DNA of 34,947 nucleotides from a virus. Every line of letters starts with the position of its first letter. Positions within the stretch are counted from its first letter, which is position 1. Made by a program: the position numbers and the translations under genes. The notes under the pieces are model-generated. The model saw only the letters and a program-made list of their open reading frames with translations. It made no database searches and was not told the origin of the DNA. Location of the stretch: UHGV virus genome UHGV-0108399, one strand, 5' to 3'. This document shows, piece by piece, positions 5,310-34,099 of this stretch.

Positions 5310-6017
5310 TTATGCCGCCTGTTTTAGTTCGTTAACTCTGATGTTCATTACCTGAACGCATTTAGCCTGCGCCTCCTCGTTGCCAGCCATTAATTGCCAG
5401 TCACGCTGATAACGCTCGATGAGTTTTTTCTTGTCAGTTTCTGTTGACGCATAATCGCTGAAGTCTTTCAGGATTTGTTCGCAGTCAACCGATGGAGATT
5501 TCTGGTTGGTATTTTCTGGTGATGGTTTGTTATCTGATGCTGGGATTGCCCATCCCGGCAGCGATGGAGGGAGCCAGCAAAATCCTGTTCCATCCTTCAG
5601 TTTTGCCCTGTGCCACCCCTGCTTTTTATCGAGAGATGTTTGTGCGAAACCTTCCTCAAGGTTATACAGATACCGACCGATTCCCCACTGAACGGCAGCA
5701 CGCTTCATTGCACCTGAACGACCACCTTTGACGGCTTCTACCTGCGTGTTTTCAGCAGCATCCCATTTGGTTACCCATTCGGAATCAATCTTGATTGATA
5801 TGCCGCATTCAACTCCGCCGTTGTTGGGAATATCGCGGTATTCATTGCGCCATCCTGCTTTGCCGCAAACATCGTCCAGGCGTTTCATGATTGCCCTGTT
5901 CGTGACATAAGCCAGCACCATAGCCCACACCTTTCCATCGCGTGTTTTACCGCTTTGCTGTATTCGCCATTCGATATCTTCAGGGCTGAATGGCTCATCG
6001 AATTTGTTCAAATCCAT
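5310..6017 (-). CDS. Rad52/22-family single-strand annealing recombinase (SSAP)
   Basis: 235 aa; conserved core (VECGISIKIDSEWVTKWDAAEN ... AMKRAAVQWGIGRYLYNL) resembles the Rad52/22 phage recombinase family; sits between kil/cIII and ssb where lambda has bet and P22 has erf. Confidence 0.65.
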   Translation of the reverse strand: MDLNKFDEPFSPEDIEWRIQQSGKTRDGKVWAMVLAYVTNRAIMKRLDDVCGKAGWRNEYRDIPNNGGVECGISIKIDSEWVTKWDAAENTQVEAVKGGRSGAMKRAAVQWGIGRYLYNLEEGFAQTSLDKKQGWHRAKLKDGTGFCWLPPSLPGWAIPASDNKPSPENTNQKSPSVDCEQILKDFSDYASTETDKKKLIERYQRDWQLMAGNEEAQAKCVQVMNIRVNELKQAA

Positions 6018-6025
6018 AATTCACC

Positions 6026-6214
6026 TCAGAATGGTAATTCGGATGGGGAGGAAAGAAATTCGCGCTCATTCATGCGCTCTCTTTGTGCTTGCCATAAACA
6101 AAGTTGTTTCTTTGATTTATCTCCCGCTTTACGCCAGTAACGAGCCTCAGCAATGTGATACTCTCTTTTTAATCGACTTAACTCTGGGGTTTTCGCCAGT
6201 TCTACCGTAATCAT
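6026..6214 (-). CDS. Small hypothetical protein (62 aa; track ORF has an alternative start at 6226)
   Basis: GGAGG RBS before internal ATG; ATGA overlap with the kil-like stop; its TGA stop lies in the RBS of the recombinase gene. Position matches P22 arf, but no similarity is claimed. Confidence 0.4.
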   Translation of the reverse strand: MITVELAKTPELSRLKREYHIAEARYWRKAGDKSKKQLCLWQAQRERMNEREFLSSPSELPF

Positions 6215-6324
6215 TTTGACCTCCATTTTCTGTAGGCTTCGATGGCCTCACGAAACATCTTTTCATCGCCAATAAAAGTGGCGATAGTGAATTTAGTCTG
6301 GATAGCCATAAGTGTTTTATCCAT
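6211..6324 (-). CDS. kil: Kil-like host cell-division inhibitor (37 aa)
   Basis: MDKTLMAIQTKFTIATFIGDEKMFREAIEAYRKW matches my recollection of the lambda Kil N-terminus; ATG overlaps the cIII stop (ATGGATAA). Confidence 0.6.
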   Translation of the reverse strand: MDKTLMAIQTKFTIATFIGDEKMFREAIEAYRKWRSK

Positions 6325-6457
6325 TTTTGGGAACTCCTGGCTGATTAAGTACGTCGATGAGTCGTTTCCATCCGTCACGTAATTTACGGGTGATTCGTTC
6401 AAGTAAAGATTCGGAAGGGCAGCCAGCAACAGGCCACCCTGCAATGGCATATTGCAT
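6317..6457 (-). CDS. cIII: cIII (FtsH/HflB protease inhibitor), 46 aa
   Basis: Hand-translated, not in the track (<60 aa, different frame from track ORF 6211..6450): MQYAIAGWPVAGCPSESLLERITRKLRDGWKRLIDVLNQPGVPKNG, near-identical to the lambda cIII core; RBS TAAGGAG. Confidence 0.8.
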   Translation of the reverse strand: MQYAIAGWPVAGCPSESLLERITRKLRDGWKRLIDVLNQPGVPKNG

Positions 6458-6529
6458 GGTGTGCTCCTTATTTATACATAACGAAAAACGCCTCGAGTGA
6501 AGCGTTATTGGTATGCGGTAACGCCGCGC

Positions 6530-6898
6530 TCAGGCGGCTTTGATAGTCATATCATCTGAATCAAATATTCCTGATGTATCGATATCGGTAATTCTTATTC
6601 CTTCGCTACCATCCATTGGAGGCCATCCTTCCTGACCATTTCCATCATTCCAGTCGAACTCACACACAACACCATATGCATTTAAGTCGCTTGAAATTGC
6701 TATAAGCAGAGCATGTTGCGCCAGCATGATTAATACAGCATTTAATACAGAGCCGTGTTTATTGAGTCGGTATTCAGAGTCTGACCAGAAATTATTAATC
6801 TGGTGAAGTTTTTCCTCTGTCATTACGTCATGGTCGATTTCAATTTCTATTGATGCTTTCCAGTCGTAATCAATGATGTATTTTTTGATGTTTGACAT
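6530..6898 (-). CDS. Hypothetical protein (122 aa), acidic C-terminus
   Basis: Track ORF between cIII and sieB/N with GAGGA RBS; no confident family assignment. Confidence 0.5.
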   Translation of the reverse strand: MSNIKKYIIDYDWKASIEIEIDHDVMTEEKLHQINNFWSDSEYRLNKHGSVLNAVLIMLAQHALLIAISSDLNAYGVVCEFDWNDGNGQEGWPPMDGSEGIRITDIDTSGIFDSDDMTIKAA

Positions 6899-6915
6899 CT
6901 ATTCATATCCTCACA

Positions 6916-6944
6916 GATAAAAAATCGCCCTCACATTGGAGGGC
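6916..6944 (-). terminator. Intrinsic terminator in the pL operon (tL-like): GCCCTC-CAATGT-GAGGGC followed by GATTTTTTATC
   Basis: 6-bp GC stem followed by a T6 run on the minus strand, between the sieB/N region and ORF 6530..6898. Confidence 0.55.
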
Positions 6945-7158
6945 AAAGAAGATTTCCAATAATCAGAACAAGTCGGCTCCTGTTTAGTTACGAGCGACAT
7001 TGCTCAGTGTATTCACTCGTTGGAATGAATACACCGTGCAGTGTTTATTCGTATGCCTGTCTTTTAACCACATCAGGCTCGGTGGTTCTCGTGTACCCCT
7101 ACAGCGAGAAATCGGATAAACTCTATTCACCCCTACAGAGAGCAAAAGAGAAACGCCG

Positions 7159-7740
7159 ATGAACAACTCATGGTGGCAGGAACTAATGCATTTTTTCCTG
7201 CAAGGAATGACACTTAAACAGTTGATTCATATGCTAATCATCCTGATCATATTGATTATTGTTATGCCGGTAAGCGTAAAAGAATGGATAAACCTGCATA
7301 ATCCAGAAATCCTTCCTCATTACTGGATGTATTACATCCTGTTGTTTTGCGTTAGCTATGTGCTTAACGGCGTTGTTAATTCCGCTTATCACGCTGTGAC
7401 TGAAAGAATTGAGGTATTCGCTGCTCAGAAGCGCAAATCTAAAGAAGAGAAATACGTGCAAGATTTGTTTGATTCGTTAACTCTTGGAGAAAGAGCGTAT
7501 TTGGCACTCGCTGTAGTCGCTAATAACCAGCTACAAACGGAAAAGGGAAGCCCTGAAGCAATCTCATTGCTCGAAAAAGGGCTTCTTATTCGGATACCTT
7601 CTGCTACTGGATATCCTGAAATCGACCGTTTTGTTATCCCAGAACGCTATAGAAATGAGTGCTACATTAGGTTTGCTGGGAAGAAAGACAGTCTTATGGA
7701 TGAACTTATCGCTCAGGATAAGCACGGCAAAAACAAGTAA
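7159..7740 (+). CDS. sieB: Superinfection exclusion protein B (SieB)
   Basis: 193 aa; N-terminal MNNSWWQELMHFFLQGMTLKQLIHMLIILIIL... with transmembrane segments, matching lambda SieB as I recall it. Confidence 0.8.
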   Translation: MNNSWWQELMHFFLQGMTLKQLIHMLIILIILIIVMPVSVKEWINLHNPEILPHYWMYYILLFCVSYVLNGVVNSAYHAVTERIEVFAAQKRKSKEEKYVQDLFDSLTLGERAYLALAVVANNQLQTEKGSPEAISLLEKGLLIRIPSATGYPEIDRFVIPERYRNECYIRFAGKKDSLMDELIAQDKHGKNK

Positions 7741-7756
7741 TTAGCAAATTAATTTA

Positions 7757-8140
7757 TCATCTCGCCGTCAGTTGTTTTGATTTCCGGTAGCCTGCCGCGT
7801 AAATGGCTACGTTTGGAAGACATACACCAGTTTCTGGTTGCTTATGTCCAAACTCATTCGCGTACACAATGGCCGCTCGCTCCAGATTGCGTCTGTATTC
7901 TTTCTGTTGCCAGATCACGTCCTGTGCCATGAACTTAATTGGCTTAGCGTCTTCTATGCGCTCAGGCGTTTCGTGAGTACCTTTAGCCTGAATCTGCGCT
8001 CTGCTTAGAGTAGGGCGGTGTAATACTTCTGAACTTATTGCTTCTTCGCGGGCCAGTACGCCGTTAGCTAATGCCTTTGCCTTTAAACGCTCACGACGAC
8101 GAGAACGTGAATTGCCTTTGAACTGAGTTCTGCGTGTCAT
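7757..8140 (-). CDS. N: Antitermination protein N (P22 gp24 / phage 21 N type)
   Basis: Arginine-rich motif near N-terminus (GNSRSRRRERLKAKALANG), C-terminus AIYAAGYRKSKQLTAR; AGGAGG RBS; first gene downstream of pL and nutL. Confidence 0.75.
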   Translation of the reverse strand: MTRRTQFKGNSRSRRRERLKAKALANGVLAREEAISSEVLHRPTLSRAQIQAKGTHETPERIEDAKPIKFMAQDVIWQQKEYRRNLERAAIVYANEFGHKQPETGVCLPNVAIYAAGYRKSKQLTAR

Positions 8141-8305
8141 ATAGACCTCCTGATGAACTTTGGTGGTGTGGTAGGTGGGAGACCCATTTCGACCTGTTTC
8201 GGCCTACTTCAATTCGGCAATAGTCCCGCAGGCCTCGCCGCTTTACGTGCGACATATTCCCGTCCATGAACCCTTCACTACACCCCAAAGTTCACTTTGG
8301 TTATT

Positions 8306-8320
8306 GCGCTTTGTCAGCGC
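8306..8320 (-). promoter_or_regulatory. nutL boxB hairpin (GCGCTGACAAAGCGC, P22-type GACAA loop)
   Basis: Transcribed-strand sequence is a 5-bp stem with GACAA pentaloop, identical in core to the boxB found downstream of cro; no canonical boxA seen next to it. Confidence 0.6.
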
Positions 8321-8388
8321 CGTAGATTCATATTCGAATCGTTGTATATTCACCGCCATGGTGAGTAGTGCGTCCTGCTGATGGCTAA

Positions 8389-8417
8389 ATAGTACGATGT
8401 GTACTTTATTGAGTCAA
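8389..8417 (-). promoter_or_regulatory. pL promoter (-35 TTGACT, 17-nt spacer, -10 TACTAT) overlapping OL operator palindromes
   Basis: Read on the minus strand; the spacer contains the perfect palindrome AGTAC-N5-GTACT (8391..8405); an imperfect second site lies at about 8416..8430. Confidence 0.55.
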
Positions 8418-8480
8418 TACAAAATGTTCTAAATATGGTTGGTTTTTTATAACACTTTGTATTTTATTGATTTATATTTT

Positions 8481-8512
8481 GGAAAAAGAAAACCCGACGC
8501 TAAGGTCGGGTT
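8481..8512 (-). terminator. Intrinsic terminator downstream of cI (AACCCGAC-loop-GTCGGGTT followed by TTTTCTTTTT)
   Basis: 8-bp stem followed by a T-rich run on the minus strand, about 30 nt after the cI stop. Confidence 0.5.
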
Positions 8513-8542
8513 ATTGTTGTGTGTTTTAGAGTGGTGATGCTG

Positions 8543-9202
8543 TTAACTAAATGTCTCTTCAGGCCACTGGCTGGCGATAACTTTCCCTACTACGGAACAG
8601 CTATCATTGCATGGGATCATTGGATATTGCGGGTTTAGTGGTTGTAGGAACACCTGACCGCTATCCCTGATCAGTTTCTTGAAGGTAAACTCCTCACCAC
8701 CAAGTCTGGCTATGCAGAAATCACCTGGCTCAACAGCCTGCTCAGGGTCAACGAGAATTAACATCCCGTCAGGAAAACTTGGCTTGGATCCTGTTGGTGC
8801 GGTCATGGAATTACCTTCAACTTCAAGCCAAAACGCACAATCACTGGCTTTTTTGGTTGTGCTGACCCATCTCTCCGCATCACCTTTGGTAAAGGTTCTA
8901 AGCTCAGGCGAGAACATCCCGGCCTGAACATGAGAAAAAACAGGGTACTCATATTGTTTTTTTACGGGGGCAGATGAGTATTCGCCAACAGGTGAAAATG
9001 TACCGTCGTGGTTGAATGAGACGTTATCAATACCAAGGTATTTAAACACCACACCAATCTCGTCAAGAGATGGATGACGAGATCCGCGCAACCAGTGACC
9101 AATTCCACCCTGCGTCATACCAAGCTCTTCAGCTAACTTCTCTTGAGTTATGCCGAGCTCTTTCATTCTGGATCTAGCCAGTTCATACCATTTCATTTTC
9201 AT
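8543..9202 (-). CDS. cI: CI-type prophage repressor (HTH N-domain + LexA/S24-like C-domain); start at 9202 or 9196
   Basis: C-terminal domain near-identical to the lambda cI C-domain ([39 protein letters not shown] ... [11 protein letters not shown]); N-terminal HTH ([27 protein letters not shown]) is not lambda-like. The track ORF start at 9277 lies in the operator region; AAGGA RBS supports 9202/9196. Confidence 0.85.
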
Positions 9203-9211
9203 ATCCTTATT

Positions 9212-9287
9212 ATTACGCTCTGTACTAAAACCATCCATGCACAAGATGTATTTTTTGTTTGCATTCCAAGAGTACATATCGTATTAT
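9212..9287 (+). promoter_or_regulatory. OR operator region with pR promoter (-35 TTGCAT 9259..9264, -10 TATTAT 9282..9287)
   Basis: Candidate operator palindromes at 9212..9226 (ATTAC-N5-GTACT), 9238..9252 (weak) and 9271..9285 (AGTAC-N5-GTATT); the last sits in the pR spacer. Divergent pRM not precisely mapped. Confidence 0.5.
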
Positions 9288-9313
9288 TGTTTCATGGTTA
9301 CTATGGAGGGCAT

Positions 9314-9529
9314 ATGAGCAACCTACGAAAATATCGAGAGTCACTGAATATCTCTCAAACAACCCTTGCTAAGGCGGTTGGATGCACACAGGGGGCTATC
9401 GGACATTGGGAATCTGGTCGTCGCTTCCCAGACCTTAAAACATGCCGTGCTCTTGTTGCGTGCCTAAACAAGTTAGGCGCAAAAGTCAGTCTTGATGACG
9501 TGTTCCCGCCGGAACACCAAGCCGCTTAA
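9314..9529 (+). CDS. cro: Cro-like repressor (HTH_XRE type, 71 aa)
   Basis: MSNLRKYRESLNISQTTLAKAVGCTQGAIGHWESGRRFP...; GGAGGG RBS; recognition region resembles the cI N-domain (TQG-IGHW). The track ORF 9143..9529 is an upstream extension across OR. Confidence 0.8.
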   Translation: MSNLRKYRESLNISQTTLAKAVGCTQGAIGHWESGRRFPDLKTCRALVACLNKLGAKVSLDDVFPPEHQAA

Positions 9530-9539
9530 TAAGCGGATC

Positions 9540-9585
9540 CGCTCTTTTCACAATGGACATTCGTCCTACGTCGCTGACAAAGCGA
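9540..9585 (+). promoter_or_regulatory. nutR (boxA CGCTCTTT at 9540..9547; boxB CGCTGACAAAGCG at 9572..9584)
   Basis: boxA-like octamer followed about 24 nt later by a boxB hairpin identical to the nutL boxB core; immediately downstream of cro. Confidence 0.65.
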
Positions 9586-9670
9586 GTCCCAAGATATCTG
9601 ACCAACTAAGGCCATATGTGTTTCCACGCATACCTTTCAACTAACTATTCACTAATGGAAATATTAAGAA

Positions 9671-9967
9671 ATGACACAAGCAAGTTACAGCAAGCCAACA
9701 CAGCGAGAAATTGATCGCGCTGAAACTGATTTACTCATCAACCTGTCAACGCTTACCCAGCGCGGTCTGGCAAAGATGATTGGCTGTCATGAATCGAAGA
9801 TAAGCAGAACGGACTGGAGATTTATTGCTTCGGTCTTGTGTGCTTTCGGAATGGCATCAGACATCAGTCCGATTAGCAGGGCTTTTAAGTATGCGCTTGA
9901 TGAAATCACAAAGAAAAAATCCCCGGCCGCCACCGAGGATTTTAAGCAAATTGATATGCAATTCTGA
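9671..9967 (+). CDS. cII: CII transcriptional activator
   Basis: 98 aa; HTH region and C-terminus ([18 protein letters not shown]) resemble lambda cII (KKRPAATERSEQIQMEF). Confidence 0.8.
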
Positions 9968-9999
9968 GGGAATTACTGGATCAATCCACAGGAGTAATT

Positions 10000-10146
10000 A
10001 TGACAAAACAACTCAGTCCTTACCAGGACAAAATTCACAAACACATACTACGTGATCGCTTCCTGTCCAGCTTCAAGCAGCCTGGTCGATTCCGGTCTGA
10101 GTTGGAAAAAGTGAAGCTGATGCAGAAGGAGAAAGGTCATGAGTAA
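10000..10146 (+). CDS. Small hypothetical protein (48 aa) between cII and O
   Basis: Hand-translated ORF ([48 protein letters not shown]) with AGGAG RBS 6 nt upstream; 3' end overlaps the start of the O-like gene. Confidence 0.3.
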
Positions 10147-10999
10147 TATTGCAACCGTAACACATTTAAGGCCTTCACAACGGCCTGTGGAGCGTCGTGT
10201 GGCAGAAGTTGAAGATGGTTATACCCGTCTTGCAAATGCCCTGTATGAAGAGCTTATCGGCGCAGATTTAACGAAAAATCAGAGCAAGGTTGCCCACGCC
10301 ATATGCCGTAAAACATACGGCTACGGTAAAAAGATGGATCGCATCTCTGATAGTCAGTTAGCTCAAATTACCAGGCTGCCAAGACAGAAGGTAAACAAGG
10401 CCAAGAATGAGCTTATCGCGATGAAGGTAATCCTTCGCGAAGGCCAGCAAATCGGGCCTAACAAGAACATCGAGGAATGGCAAATCGAAGGGTGTCACTA
10501 CTCTGGTGATAATGTCACTGCATTGGTGACAAAAAGTGTCACCAAAACGGTGACAGCGCTGTCACCAAAACAGGGACACACAAAAGAAACTATTACAAAA
10601 GAAAAAAGAAATAATAAAAACACTATGTCCGAAAGTGTTCGGACGGAGTGTGAAAAATCATCTGACCGTCACGAAGAAACCGACAAGGCATTCGAGGAAA
10701 TATTCTGGTGTGCAGGCATGCGGAAAGCCGGGAAGAAAAACGCAGCTTCAGCATTCAGAACACAGTTCAGGGAATGGCGTAAAACTACCAGGGGTACGGC
10801 AAGCGAGTTTGCCACGATGCTGGCAGAAGACATCGCATGCAGGAATGGTAAGCAGTTCGGATTCGACAGGTTGTTACCATCGAGCTACCTGAACGGTCAG
10901 CGCTGGAACGACGAAAAGCCAGAAACCATTCAACCACAATCCAAACCATCATCCGCAATCACCGTATCGAAAACTGGCTACGTGTTTTTCGACAGGTGA
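10139..10999 (+). CDS. O: Replication initiator, lambda O-like N-terminal domain
   Basis: N-terminal ~110 aa ([56 protein letters not shown] ... GPNKNIEEW) resembles the lambda O N-domain; C-terminal half is unrelated to lambda O. Confidence 0.8.
10504..10620 (+). repeat. Putative replication origin: GGTGAC / GTCACC iteron palindromes followed by an A-rich segment, inside the O-like gene
   Basis: GGTGATAATGTCAC, GGTGACAAAAAGTGTCACC and GGTGACAGCGCTGTCACC in tandem, then AAAAGAAACTATTACAAAAGAAAAAAGAAATAATAAAAA; architecture matches ori-lambda. Confidence 0.55.
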
Positions 11000-11106
11000 A
11001 CCATGAAATCAAAAATCAAATCGTTACTGGCCGCTGGTTATAACCACGGCTGGTTAAGTATTTCGTTTGTCGATTTCTGGTTTAAAAATCTCAATCTGAG
11101 GGAATC

Positions 11107-31705: not shown

Positions 31706-34099
31706 ATGGCTAATTACCGTGATTTGTTAGAGCAGGCTGGCGCACGTTACGGTGTGCCAGAAGGGTTGATGACTGCACTGGGTGCCAAGGAGTCTTCTTA
31801 CGACCCTGCCGCAGTAAGCTCCGCCGGGGCTGTAGGATTGACTCAGGTCATGCCTGGGACATGGCGTGATATGGGTTATACCGATGAGCAAATGCAAAAC
31901 CCCGAATATCAGGCTGACGCTGGCGCGCGCTATCTGGCAAAGATGTACCAGCAGTTTGGTAACTGGCGTGACGCTCTTCAGGCTTATCACGACGGTCCCG
32001 GCAACGTTATGAAGGCAAAGCGTGGTGAATATACGCCAGGACCTGAAGGCCGCGGTTACGTTGATGATCGCTTTGCTCAATGGGCGGGTGACCCGGTGAC
32101 AGACTCAACAGTCGAACAGCGCGCCACCTCTGCAAAGGTACATCCTCAGCAAGACCCTAACAACCCGTTTGCACAACTGGAAGTACAGTCATCCGAACAA
32201 GTATCGGCATCAGGTGTGCAGTCAGACCCAAATAATCCATTTGCTCAGATTGAGCAGCAGGCAGCCAGTCAGCAGCCACCTCAACCCGTAAGTTCTGTCG
32301 CACCGAAACCTGTTCAGCAACAAGGCGGAATAATGTCTGACCTTGGTAATGGACTTGCTGAAACCGGGCGCGGCTTACTACAGGCAGGAATCAACGTGGC
32401 GAACATACCTGCTGAACTCACTGATGCTGTAACAAGCGCGGCGGCTTGGGCTGGCGGTAAACTCGGCATTGGCGATGGTACATATCAACCAGCACCACGA
32501 TTAACAACGCAGGGATTAGAGCAGGACTTTGGCCTTCAGCAAGGAGCGCTGACTCCACAAACGACAGAGGGAAGGGTATTTGCTGAAGCATTGCCTTACC
32601 TCACTCCTGCCGGCGTTGAGAGAGCGGCAACACAGGCACCAACACTTGCTGGTCGAATTGCTCAGGGTGCAACTCGCCTTCTCGCTGAAAACGCAGTTGG
32701 ATCACTTGCTGCAAACAGTGTGAAAGATGATGCGGAAGCACTAGCCACCGACTTAGGCGTTGGCGTTCTGGCTGGCGGAGCTATTAACGCTGCCGGACGT
32801 GGATTAGGTGCTGCTTATCGTGGAGTTCGTGGTGCGATAGCGCCAGAAGCGCAACAGGCTATCAGGTTTGCAGAGCGTGAAGGAGTGCCTCTGCACACCA
32901 CAGACCTGTTACAACCTACTTCCCGCGTCGGAAAAATGGCGCAGACTACAGCAGAAAATATCCCTCTGGCTGGCACAAGCGGAATGAGAGCAACGCAACA
33001 GGAAGCGAGAAGCCAGTTGGTGCAGAGATTTGCTGATAAATTCGGTGAGTATGATCCAGCTGTTGTTATTGAAAGCCTTAAAGCGAAAACATCAGGAATT
33101 CGTCGTGCTGCAGGTAATCGACTTGAACAGGTTCAGAATGCAATGGCGGGAGTCAACATTCAGCCTGTGCGAGCAATTCAGCAGATTGATACTGAGATAT
33201 CTAACCTGCAGAAGCTTGGTAAGGTCGCTGATAACGAGACGATTTCAAAACTTCAATCCTATCGTGATGAGCTTATTCGCAATGCTGGTCATGATGGTCC
33301 GGTAAATCTGGATTTGAAGCAATTAAGCGATCTGCGCAGCCAGTTCAGAATGGACGTGAAGGGTGAGCGACCAGTGTTACCAAATCGTTCCGATGCCGCC
33401 ATACAGCGCGTTTACAAGGCGATGACCGACGATATCAATGGTGCCATTGGTCATAATCTTGGCAACGATACTCTCCGTAAATATCAGCAGGCCAATGCCG
33501 TCTACGCTGACGAAGCGGCGAAACTAAAGAATACCAGGCTGAAGAATGTTCTCATGAAAGGCGACCTGACACCGGAAATTGTCAACAACATGCTATTCAG
33601 CAAGAACAAATCGGAAATTAAGACGCTGTATAACTCAGTTGGTCGTGTTGGCAGGGCGCAAATGCGCAATGGCATCATTGGAAAGGCGATGGAGAAATCT
33701 GGCGGATCCCCTGACCAGTTCCTTCGGCAGCTTAACATCCTGCAAAACCAGACTGGCATCACATTTAAGGGGCAGGATGCTGCTTATCTGAAAGGATTGA
33801 AAAATTACCTTCAGTCCACTCAGCAGGCAGCAAAAGCGGCAGTAACAACACCCACAGGGCAGCAAACCATCCCGTTCATTATCGGGTATGGGACGGCAAT
33901 GAACCCGGCGACAACTGGCGCAGCAGTAAGCTACGGACTTCTTACTCGCGCCTATGAGAGCGAACCATTCAGAAATGCAATGCTCAGAATGGCAAACACC
34001 CCACGCGGATCAACAGCCTTTGAGAAAGCAATGCAGCAGGCACAAAAGGCAATTAACGCTCTGACGCAGGGGGCTAAGTCTGATTCGTTGTCAGAATAG
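31706..34099 (+). CDS. Ejection protein (gp16 position) with N-terminal soluble lytic transglycosylase domain
   Basis: 797 aa; N-terminal SLT motif (GAKESSYDPAAVSSAGAVGLTQVMPGTWRDMGY); long A/G/Q-rich extended region; internal DPNNPFAQ duplication. Confidence 0.75.
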   Translation: MANYRDLLEQAGARYGVPEGLMTALGAKESSYDPAAVSSAGAVGLTQVMPGTWRDMGYTDEQMQNPEYQADAGARYLAKMYQQFGNWRDALQAYHDGPGNVMKAKRGEYTPGPEGRGYVDDRFAQWAGDPVTDSTVEQRATSAKVHPQQDPNNPFAQLEVQSSEQVSASGVQSDPNNPFAQIEQQAASQQPPQPVSSVAPKPVQQQGGIMSDLGNGLAETGRGLLQAGINVANIPAELTDAVTSAAAWAGGKLGIGDGTYQPAPRLTTQGLEQDFGLQQGALTPQTTEGRVFAEALPYLTPAGVERAATQAPTLAGRIAQGATRLLAENAVGSLAANSVKDDAEALATDLGVGVLAGGAINAAGRGLGAAYRGVRGAIAPEAQQAIRFAEREGVPLHTTDLLQPTSRVGKMAQTTAENIPLAGTSGMRATQQEARSQLVQRFADKFGEYDPAVVIESLKAKTSGIRRAAGNRLEQVQNAMAGVNIQPVRAIQQIDTEISNLQKLGKVADNETISKLQSYRDELIRNAGHDGPVNLDLKQLSDLRSQFRMDVKGERPVLPNRSDAAIQRVYKAMTDDINGAIGHNLGNDTLRKYQQANAVYADEAAKLKNTRLKNVLMKGDLTPEIVNNMLFSKNKSEIKTLYNSVGRVGRAQMRNGIIGKAMEKSGGSPDQFLRQLNILQNQTGITFKGQDAAYLKGLKNYLQSTQQAAKAAVTTPTGQQTIPFIIGYGTAMNPATTGAAVSYGLLTRAYESEPFRNAMLRMANTPRGSTAFEKAMQQAQKAINALTQGAKSDSLSE

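Follow-up and report, generated by a model that had tools for sequence, protein, structure and literature searches.

The N/nut systems closest to the locus analysed here, which is part of a 34,947-nt stretch of viral DNA (the window hereafter), are those of phages H-19B and 933W (Neely and Friedman, 1998, 2000; Sen laboratory). Two hairpins have been described at the H-19B nutR site, where N together with NusA/NusG protects the spacer and boxB in footprints while boxA stays unprotected; it overlaps with the rut of tR1, a Rho-dependent terminator, whereas no Rho terminator overlaps nutL (PMC3526286). Phage lambda has the same layout as the window, but its N, a member of PF11438, binds boxB of the GAAAA/GAAGA type, and boxA is present at both of its sites, where point mutations block N. 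Lambda N likewise works without NusB once boxA has been removed, and antitermination was efficient and NusB-independent with the boxA69 transversion or with boxA deleted (PMC2800207, PMC2724277). In P22, both nutL and nutR carry a consensus boxA (CGCTCTTTA), unlike nutL of the window, and the spacers are short (~10 nt) and unstructured, with none of the ACAAY/hairpin/UACG unit seen in the window. That unit, followed by boxB, recurs at both sites of Nil2 and epsilon34, whose nutR spacer hairpin is the same as in the window, although their boxB has a GAAA tetraloop and their N a different arginine-rich motif (ARM). Furthermore, boxA is absent at both nut sites of epsilon34, while nutL of Nil2 keeps the consensus boxA GCTCTTTAA and so displays what the H-19B-type nutL has lost.

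Identity and genomic context of the locus

The whole window matches, at 100% identity, a prophage carried in the chromosome of E. coli MB46. On its minus strand lie the N antitermination gene (7757..8140, 127 aa), which PGAP (NCBI) names 'transcriptional antitermination N peptide' in MB46, and a cI-like repressor gene (8543 to about 9202); on the plus strand follow cro of a Nil2-type immunity module (9315..9529, 71 aa from the ATG at 9315, TAA at 9527-9529) and cII (9671..9967), which the MB46 annotation calls a CII family regulator. A consensus scan located a candidate sigma-70-like pL promoter (TTGACT, 17 nt, TACTAT) at 8389..8417 of the minus strand, 5' to the left hairpin described below, and the pL transcript probably starts at A8382 (ATCAGCAGG...), judging from its homology to the start that EF120460 gives for the lambda pL transcript. 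The left hairpin thus precedes N within the pL leader, and the right one is transcribed from pR in the interval from cro to cII; nutL and nutR canonically occupy these places. The N protein matches the Pfam family PF25694 (N_peptide, E = 2e-15), of which the P22 gene 24 protein is also a member, has an N-terminal ARM and shares 98% amino acid identity with H-19B N, encoded at the same genomic position; at the DNA level, the N gene and its leader are 97-99.5% identical to those of Stx phages, H-19B, HK106 and mEp234. Taken together, the region very probably comprises both nut sites, left and right, of an N antitermination module of the H-19B/933W type in an E. coli prophage.

Compared with H-19B, nutL of the window differs at only 1 of 88 nt, a loop nucleotide, and the H-19B nutL likewise contains no consensus boxA. 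The H-19B nutR agrees in spacer hairpin, UACG and boxB, and differs at boxA position 5 (CGCTCTTTT in the window, CGCTATTTT in H-19B) and at three positions downstream of boxB. Larger differences are found around the module: the window has another immunity module (Nil2-like cI/cro with a palindrome at the cro stop) and another N-leader cassette than H-19B, and it has a P22-like late region and is no Stx phage. The first-pass annotation of this DNA, made from the sequence alone, was correct in all its statements on both boxB 13-mers, the nutR boxA and the palindrome; what it missed is that the nut system is the published H-19B/933W type, that the left/right asymmetry is a trait of this family and that constraint on the nutR boxA is relaxed as well. 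The H-19B/933W-type N/nut module of the window is therefore an already known system. The nutL without boxA is genuine, but it is shared within the H-19B/933W phage group and was described previously, which makes it an ordinary finding. Its importance beyond correct annotation is small, as the module is textbook-adjacent and has been studied experimentally as H-19B nutR.

Besides, several elements were observed near the nut sites. An Rfam scan of 6000-11000 matched only the cIII thermoregulator (Lambda_thermo, 6412-6470, minus strand, 88.5 bits, E = 2e-21), which marks the start of cIII in the pL operon; Rfam has no nut family. A bidirectional terminator hairpin follows closely on cI, at a place resembling that of Timm (8491-8512, both strands), and an oop-like intrinsic terminator is antisense to the 3' end of cII (9916-9943, minus strand). 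Among phages with the same N (loci L002-L083), three unrelated N-leader cassettes of ~100-230 nt occur between CTTTGGGGTG and CACCACCAAAGTTCATCAGGAGG (8141-8300 on the minus strand of the window), and at least five different pL/operator modules are joined exactly at the transcript start CATCAGCAGGACGC. A paper on mEpimmI deals with a different system and was set aside.

boxB hairpins, N protein and the conserved spacer scaffold

Identical boxB hairpins with a GACAA loop had been reported on both transcribed strands, and the 13-mer CGCTGACAAAGCG indeed occurs exactly at 8307-8319 (minus strand, between pL and N) and at 9572-9584 (plus strand, between cro and cII). Both cores extend to 15-nt hairpins with a 5-bp stem, namely GCGCU-GACAA-AGCGC at nutL (8320..8306, minus strand; 8306..8324 with its UACG linker) and UCGCU-GACAA-AGCGA at nutR (9571..9585, plus strand), whose closing pair differs in a compensatory manner, G-C on the left and U-A on the right. 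The P22 nutL boxB GCGCUGACAAAGCGC has exactly the sequence of the nutL 15-mer, which is invariant across all E. coli relatives among 85 loci found through the N protein. The ARM of the window's N, FKGNSRSRRRERLKAKALA, aligns with that of P22, FAGNAKTRRHERRRKLAIE, and the C-terminal 30 aa of the two proteins are 67% identical. A GACAA pentaloop on a 5-bp G+C-rich stem, paired with a matching ARM in an N of the P22-containing family PF25694, makes 'P22-type', as the hairpins had been called, an apt description.

That the two 13-mers arose by chance or through recombination alone, and do not function in antitermination, we find hardly credible. Nothing but the mosaic nature of the region speaks for this. 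Allowing up to one mismatch, the window contains three matches to CGCTGACAAAGCG, where shuffled sequence would give 0.06; both exact copies sit in canonical positions (pL to N, cro to cII), the change in their closing pairs is compensatory, the H-19B nutR used in experiments has the identical sequence, and boxB co-varies with the ARM of N in relatives. The third match (CGCTGACGAAGCG, 33505-33517, plus strand, one mismatch, loop GACGA) lies inside the late ORF 31706-34099 and is probably due to chance.

The co-variation is seen in Oslo, epsilon34 and Nil2, where ARM and boxB loop change together. vB_SosS_Oslo and 118970_sal4 carry the ARM changes N10T and S13A relative to the window, while epsilon34 and Nil2 have GAAA tetraloop boxBs with a compensatory change of the closing pair. 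In the two Salmonella phages vB_SosS_Oslo and 118970_sal4 (L085 and L086), the nutL boxB (GCUC-CGUCAAC-GAGC) is furthermore unlike their own nutR boxB (UCGCU-GACAA-GGCGA), so one N would need to read two different loops. Many other loci, L087 and L090 among them, join the same spacer hairpin and UACG to boxB hairpins that have a GAAA tetraloop and a covarying outer stem pair (CGGCU/AGCCG, AGGCU/AGCCU, UGGCU/AGCCA); with one scaffold bearing such varied hairpins, boxB behaves as an exchangeable specificity cassette in a conserved nut scaffold. Downstream of the nutL boxB, a boxC-like GGGGTGTAGTG was noticed at 8270-8295 (minus strand), in a region with the motif GGGGTGT that is homologous to the CTTTGGGGTGTGTG region of lambda.

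Both nut sites of the window share the order ACAAY, spacer hairpin, UACG, boxB, and a dyad symmetry is present in the spacer 5' of each boxB. RNA folding predicted three hairpins per leader (nutL z = -2.8). On the left, from the 5' side (all on the minus strand), these comprise the hairpin UCACC-AUGGC-GGUGA shared with the lambda pL leader (8350..8364), with a near-invariant stem (G33A in 2 of 85 loci) and a variable loop, and, 3' of the conserved single-stranded ACAAC (8341..8345), the spacer hairpin GAUUC-GAAUAU-GAAUC (8325..8340, -4.3 kcal/mol, z = -2.6), followed by boxB. The right site presents ACAAU, the spacer hairpin GGAC-AUUC-GUCC and UACG at 9550..9570 (plus strand, -5.0 kcal/mol, z = -2.7). 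Among the 85 loci, which fall into 14 nutL haplotypes, the nutL spacer stem GAUUC/GAAUC is invariant and its loop has at least six variants; in the nutR stem GGAC/GUCC, pairing survives one A-to-G exchange in the 5' arm, as A-U becomes G-U, with the search pattern itself allowing GGRC. Nil2 nutL contributes, from a single record, the stem GUCGA/UCGAC. Three stem sequences in one and the same position (GGAC/GUCC, GAUUC/GAAUC and GUCGA/UCGAC) are good evidence for a selected structure.

boxA at the left and right sites

The absence of a boxA next to the nutL boxB, as first annotated, is borne out by a scan of the leader and by a survey of relatives. The 8-mer CGCTCTTT with up to one mismatch has no match from 7498 to 9155 and hence none in the pL-N leader, so that a boxA 3' of boxB, or at any other place in the leader, was rejected as well. 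GCTCTTT was found within 70 nt upstream at none of 201 related nutL sites (68 distinct), which were gathered by a pattern scan for the nutL spacer hairpin from contigs partly fetched twice, so that the counts are not independent. A single-stranded YGCUCUU(U)A 5' of boxB and conserved among relatives is thus lacking at nutL. An exact CGCTCTTT does occur on the pL-sense strand at 7490-7497 (minus strand), ~260 nt beyond the stop codon of N and in antisense orientation to the sieB-like ORF 7159-7740; it was judged a chance match, with no boxB nearby and buried in the local hairpin CTCTT-tctcc-AAGAG.

A degenerate boxA conserved across relatives had been named as an example of what could overturn this claim, and its sole candidate is CGCACTACT (8364..8372, minus strand), annotated as 'putative nutL boxA' in related records. 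It would be very unlikely, in our estimate, that this element (CGCACUACU at 8372..8364, ~43 nt upstream of boxB) is functional and recruits NusB-NusE as in lambda. The form CGCAYTACT is labelled in this way in GenBank EF120460 and stands 5'-most in the nutL feature of GQ499361, and CGCACUACU agrees with CGCUCUUUA at positions 1-3, 5 and 6, including the equivalents of G2, C5 and U6 that are defined by lambda mutants. Matches of this quality nevertheless arise at chance rate: the 9-mer has four mismatches to CGCTCTTTA, and the window has 736 matches to the boxA 9-mer with up to three mismatches, where 721 are expected, or one in roughly 95 nt. NusB-NusE reads all eight boxA nucleotides base-specifically, three of which are mismatched in the candidate, and the 3' end of the candidate is paired within the leader hairpin.

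Its conservation and homology also argue against a boxA. Five of the nine positions vary among the 85 loci (C1T, G2A, C3T, C5T, U6C), with C5 changed to U in about a third of the loci and G2 to A in Salmonella phages, and the variable positions 2, 5 and 6 are the equivalents of the lambda boxA5, boxA16 and U39G mutations; in more distant relatives the sequence at this position is unrelated. The relatives are closely related, which limits the power of such conservation statistics. In alignment with lambda, the first ~35 nt of the leader are homologous (CATCAGCAGGACGCACTnnnCACCAnGnnGGTGA here; ATCAGCAGGACGCACT..CACCA..GGTGA in lambda), and the true lambda boxA comes only after GGTGA; the P22 leader shares CATCAGCAGGACGC, and the P22 boxA lies about 25 nt further on. 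The candidate is homologous to CGCACTGAC of lambda and CGCTGGTAG of P22, neither of which is a boxA, and it was rejected. The Nil2 nutL, from the sister N type, shows the proper place of boxA in this architecture, with the consensus boxA directly 5' of ACAAC, where the window has GGTGAATAT (window 8341-8349, in the leader, reads AUAUACAAC). By sequence, ACAAC corresponds to the 3' tail of the rrn-type extended boxA, and the H-19B-type nutL appears to have lost the boxA core while keeping the ACAAC tail. The 'putative nutL boxA' of some GenBank records is probably not a boxA.

At nutR, CGCTCTTT was found at 9540-9547, 24 nt before the right 13-mer, as had been noted; extended to CGCUCUUUU (9540..9548, plus strand), it is a YGCUCUU(U)A tract 5' of boxB that is predicted to be unpaired and represents the most consensus-like allele of the family. 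The exact 8-mer occurs three times in the window, and 31 times against 34 expected with up to one mismatch; at such a chance frequency, the nutR boxA draws its meaning from position and homology and not from rarity. Among 151 nutR-type sites (again with contigs partly fetched twice and counts that are not independent), the boxA slot is polymorphic at positions 2, 3 and 5. The commonest allele is CGCTATTTT (78 of 151), which carries the same C-to-A change as lambda boxA16 (PMC2724277), a mutation that lowers the NusB:NusE affinity about 40-fold, from 90 nM to 3.4 uM (PMC2800207). The window allele CGCTCTTTT accounts for 52 sites, CACTCTTTT for two, and CGTTCTTTT, ACCTCTTTT and GCTCTTTGT for one each, the last being the boxA-like sequence of Nil2 in a shifted register; the remaining 16 sites, from Salmonella-type relatives, have a C-rich sequence that is no boxA. 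All 151 sites, including these 16, retain the spacer hairpin, UACG and the boxB hairpin, with the boxB loop or a stem base changed in some, the 16 among them. The nutR boxA itself is, on this comparison, weakly constrained and drifting among relatives. As the window carries the consensus-like allele, NusB-NusE could still bind there and contribute.

The palindrome CCGCTTAATAAGCGG reported across the cro stop codon was recovered at 9522-9536 (plus strand), over the TAA, and folds into six base pairs around a 3-nt loop (-7.5 kcal/mol, z = -2.85); on the minus strand it was called terminator-like, yet with no proper T tract. It occurs only with this cro type (the window, L010, L048, L057, L060 and Nil2), and the homology breakpoint against H-19B/933W falls at 9539/9540, between palindrome and boxA. 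Since it moves with the cro allele and is separated from boxA by this breakpoint, a place for the palindrome in nutR was rejected; by sequence comparison, it belongs to the exchangeable cro/immunity module and not to the nut site.

Proposed antitermination with a dispensable boxA

We propose that the pL and pR transcripts each form a GACAA-pentaloop boxB, which would be bound by the P22-like ARM at the N terminus of N. The ACAAY/spacer hairpin/UACG unit 5' of each boxB would serve as the spacer, which in H-19B nutR is contacted by NusA (and Rho), and N and NusA would then modify RNA polymerase and lead to readthrough of downstream terminators. The NusB-NusE/boxA arm of the lambda mechanism would be dispensable in this N family: at nutL the boxA core would be gone altogether, with the ACAAC tail alone remaining, and the boxA-like tract of nutR may be a weakly constrained remnant that is probably also part of the Rho-dependent tR1 rut region. 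Neely and Friedman, in 2000, reportedly found that the H-19B/933W N-nut system does not require boxA, NusB or S10. By analogy to the literature on the near-identical H-19B sites, readthrough that depends on N and NusA would proceed without boxA, NusB and S10 here as well, and we infer the same behaviour for this prophage and its nutL, with N binding boxB, NusA binding the spacer unit and boxA being dispensable. The sequence identity, the architecture, the conservation pattern and the absence of boxA were observed directly in the window and its relatives.

The boxA-like tract of nutR could, alternatively, be kept mainly as a C/U-rich, unstructured part of the tR1 rut (the equivalent of rutA) instead of as a NusB-NusE site, a possibility that we regard as tentative. 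nutL would then have no such tract because no Rho-dependent terminator overlaps it. It is in line with this idea that lambda rutA is annotated as abutting and overlapping nutR, that the rut of tR1 overlaps nutR in H-19B, with a Rho footprint on the spacer and no such terminator at nutL (PMC3526286), and that Salmonella-type relatives have swapped boxA for the C-rich, G-poor tract CACCACTTCCA. That published Rho footprint, however, covers the spacer and not boxA, and CGCT[C/A]TTTT is kept at 130 of 151 sites, more than base composition would demand. A rut function of the tract complements the boxA-independent mechanism proposed above and is not exclusive of it.

We also considered that the nutL/nutR asymmetry is functional and not vestigial, the left operon being obligately NusB-NusE-independent while the right one retains a tunable boxA whose fifth position is naturally C or A, which seems improbable to us. 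If it were true, delayed-early rightward expression would respond to the availability of host NusB/S10 in a lineage-specific way, and in Stx phages this response would extend to the route to Q and toxin. As to the boxA-independent mechanism, a core of ACAAY, spacer hairpin, UACG and boxB is conserved across ~150-200 related sites, with boxA lost at nutL and drifting at nutR. This pattern of a conserved scaffold fits the published work on H-19B N, in which the requirement for host factors is reduced and the spacer and boxB are protected but boxA is not, and it provides a natural-variation counterpart to the published independence from boxA.
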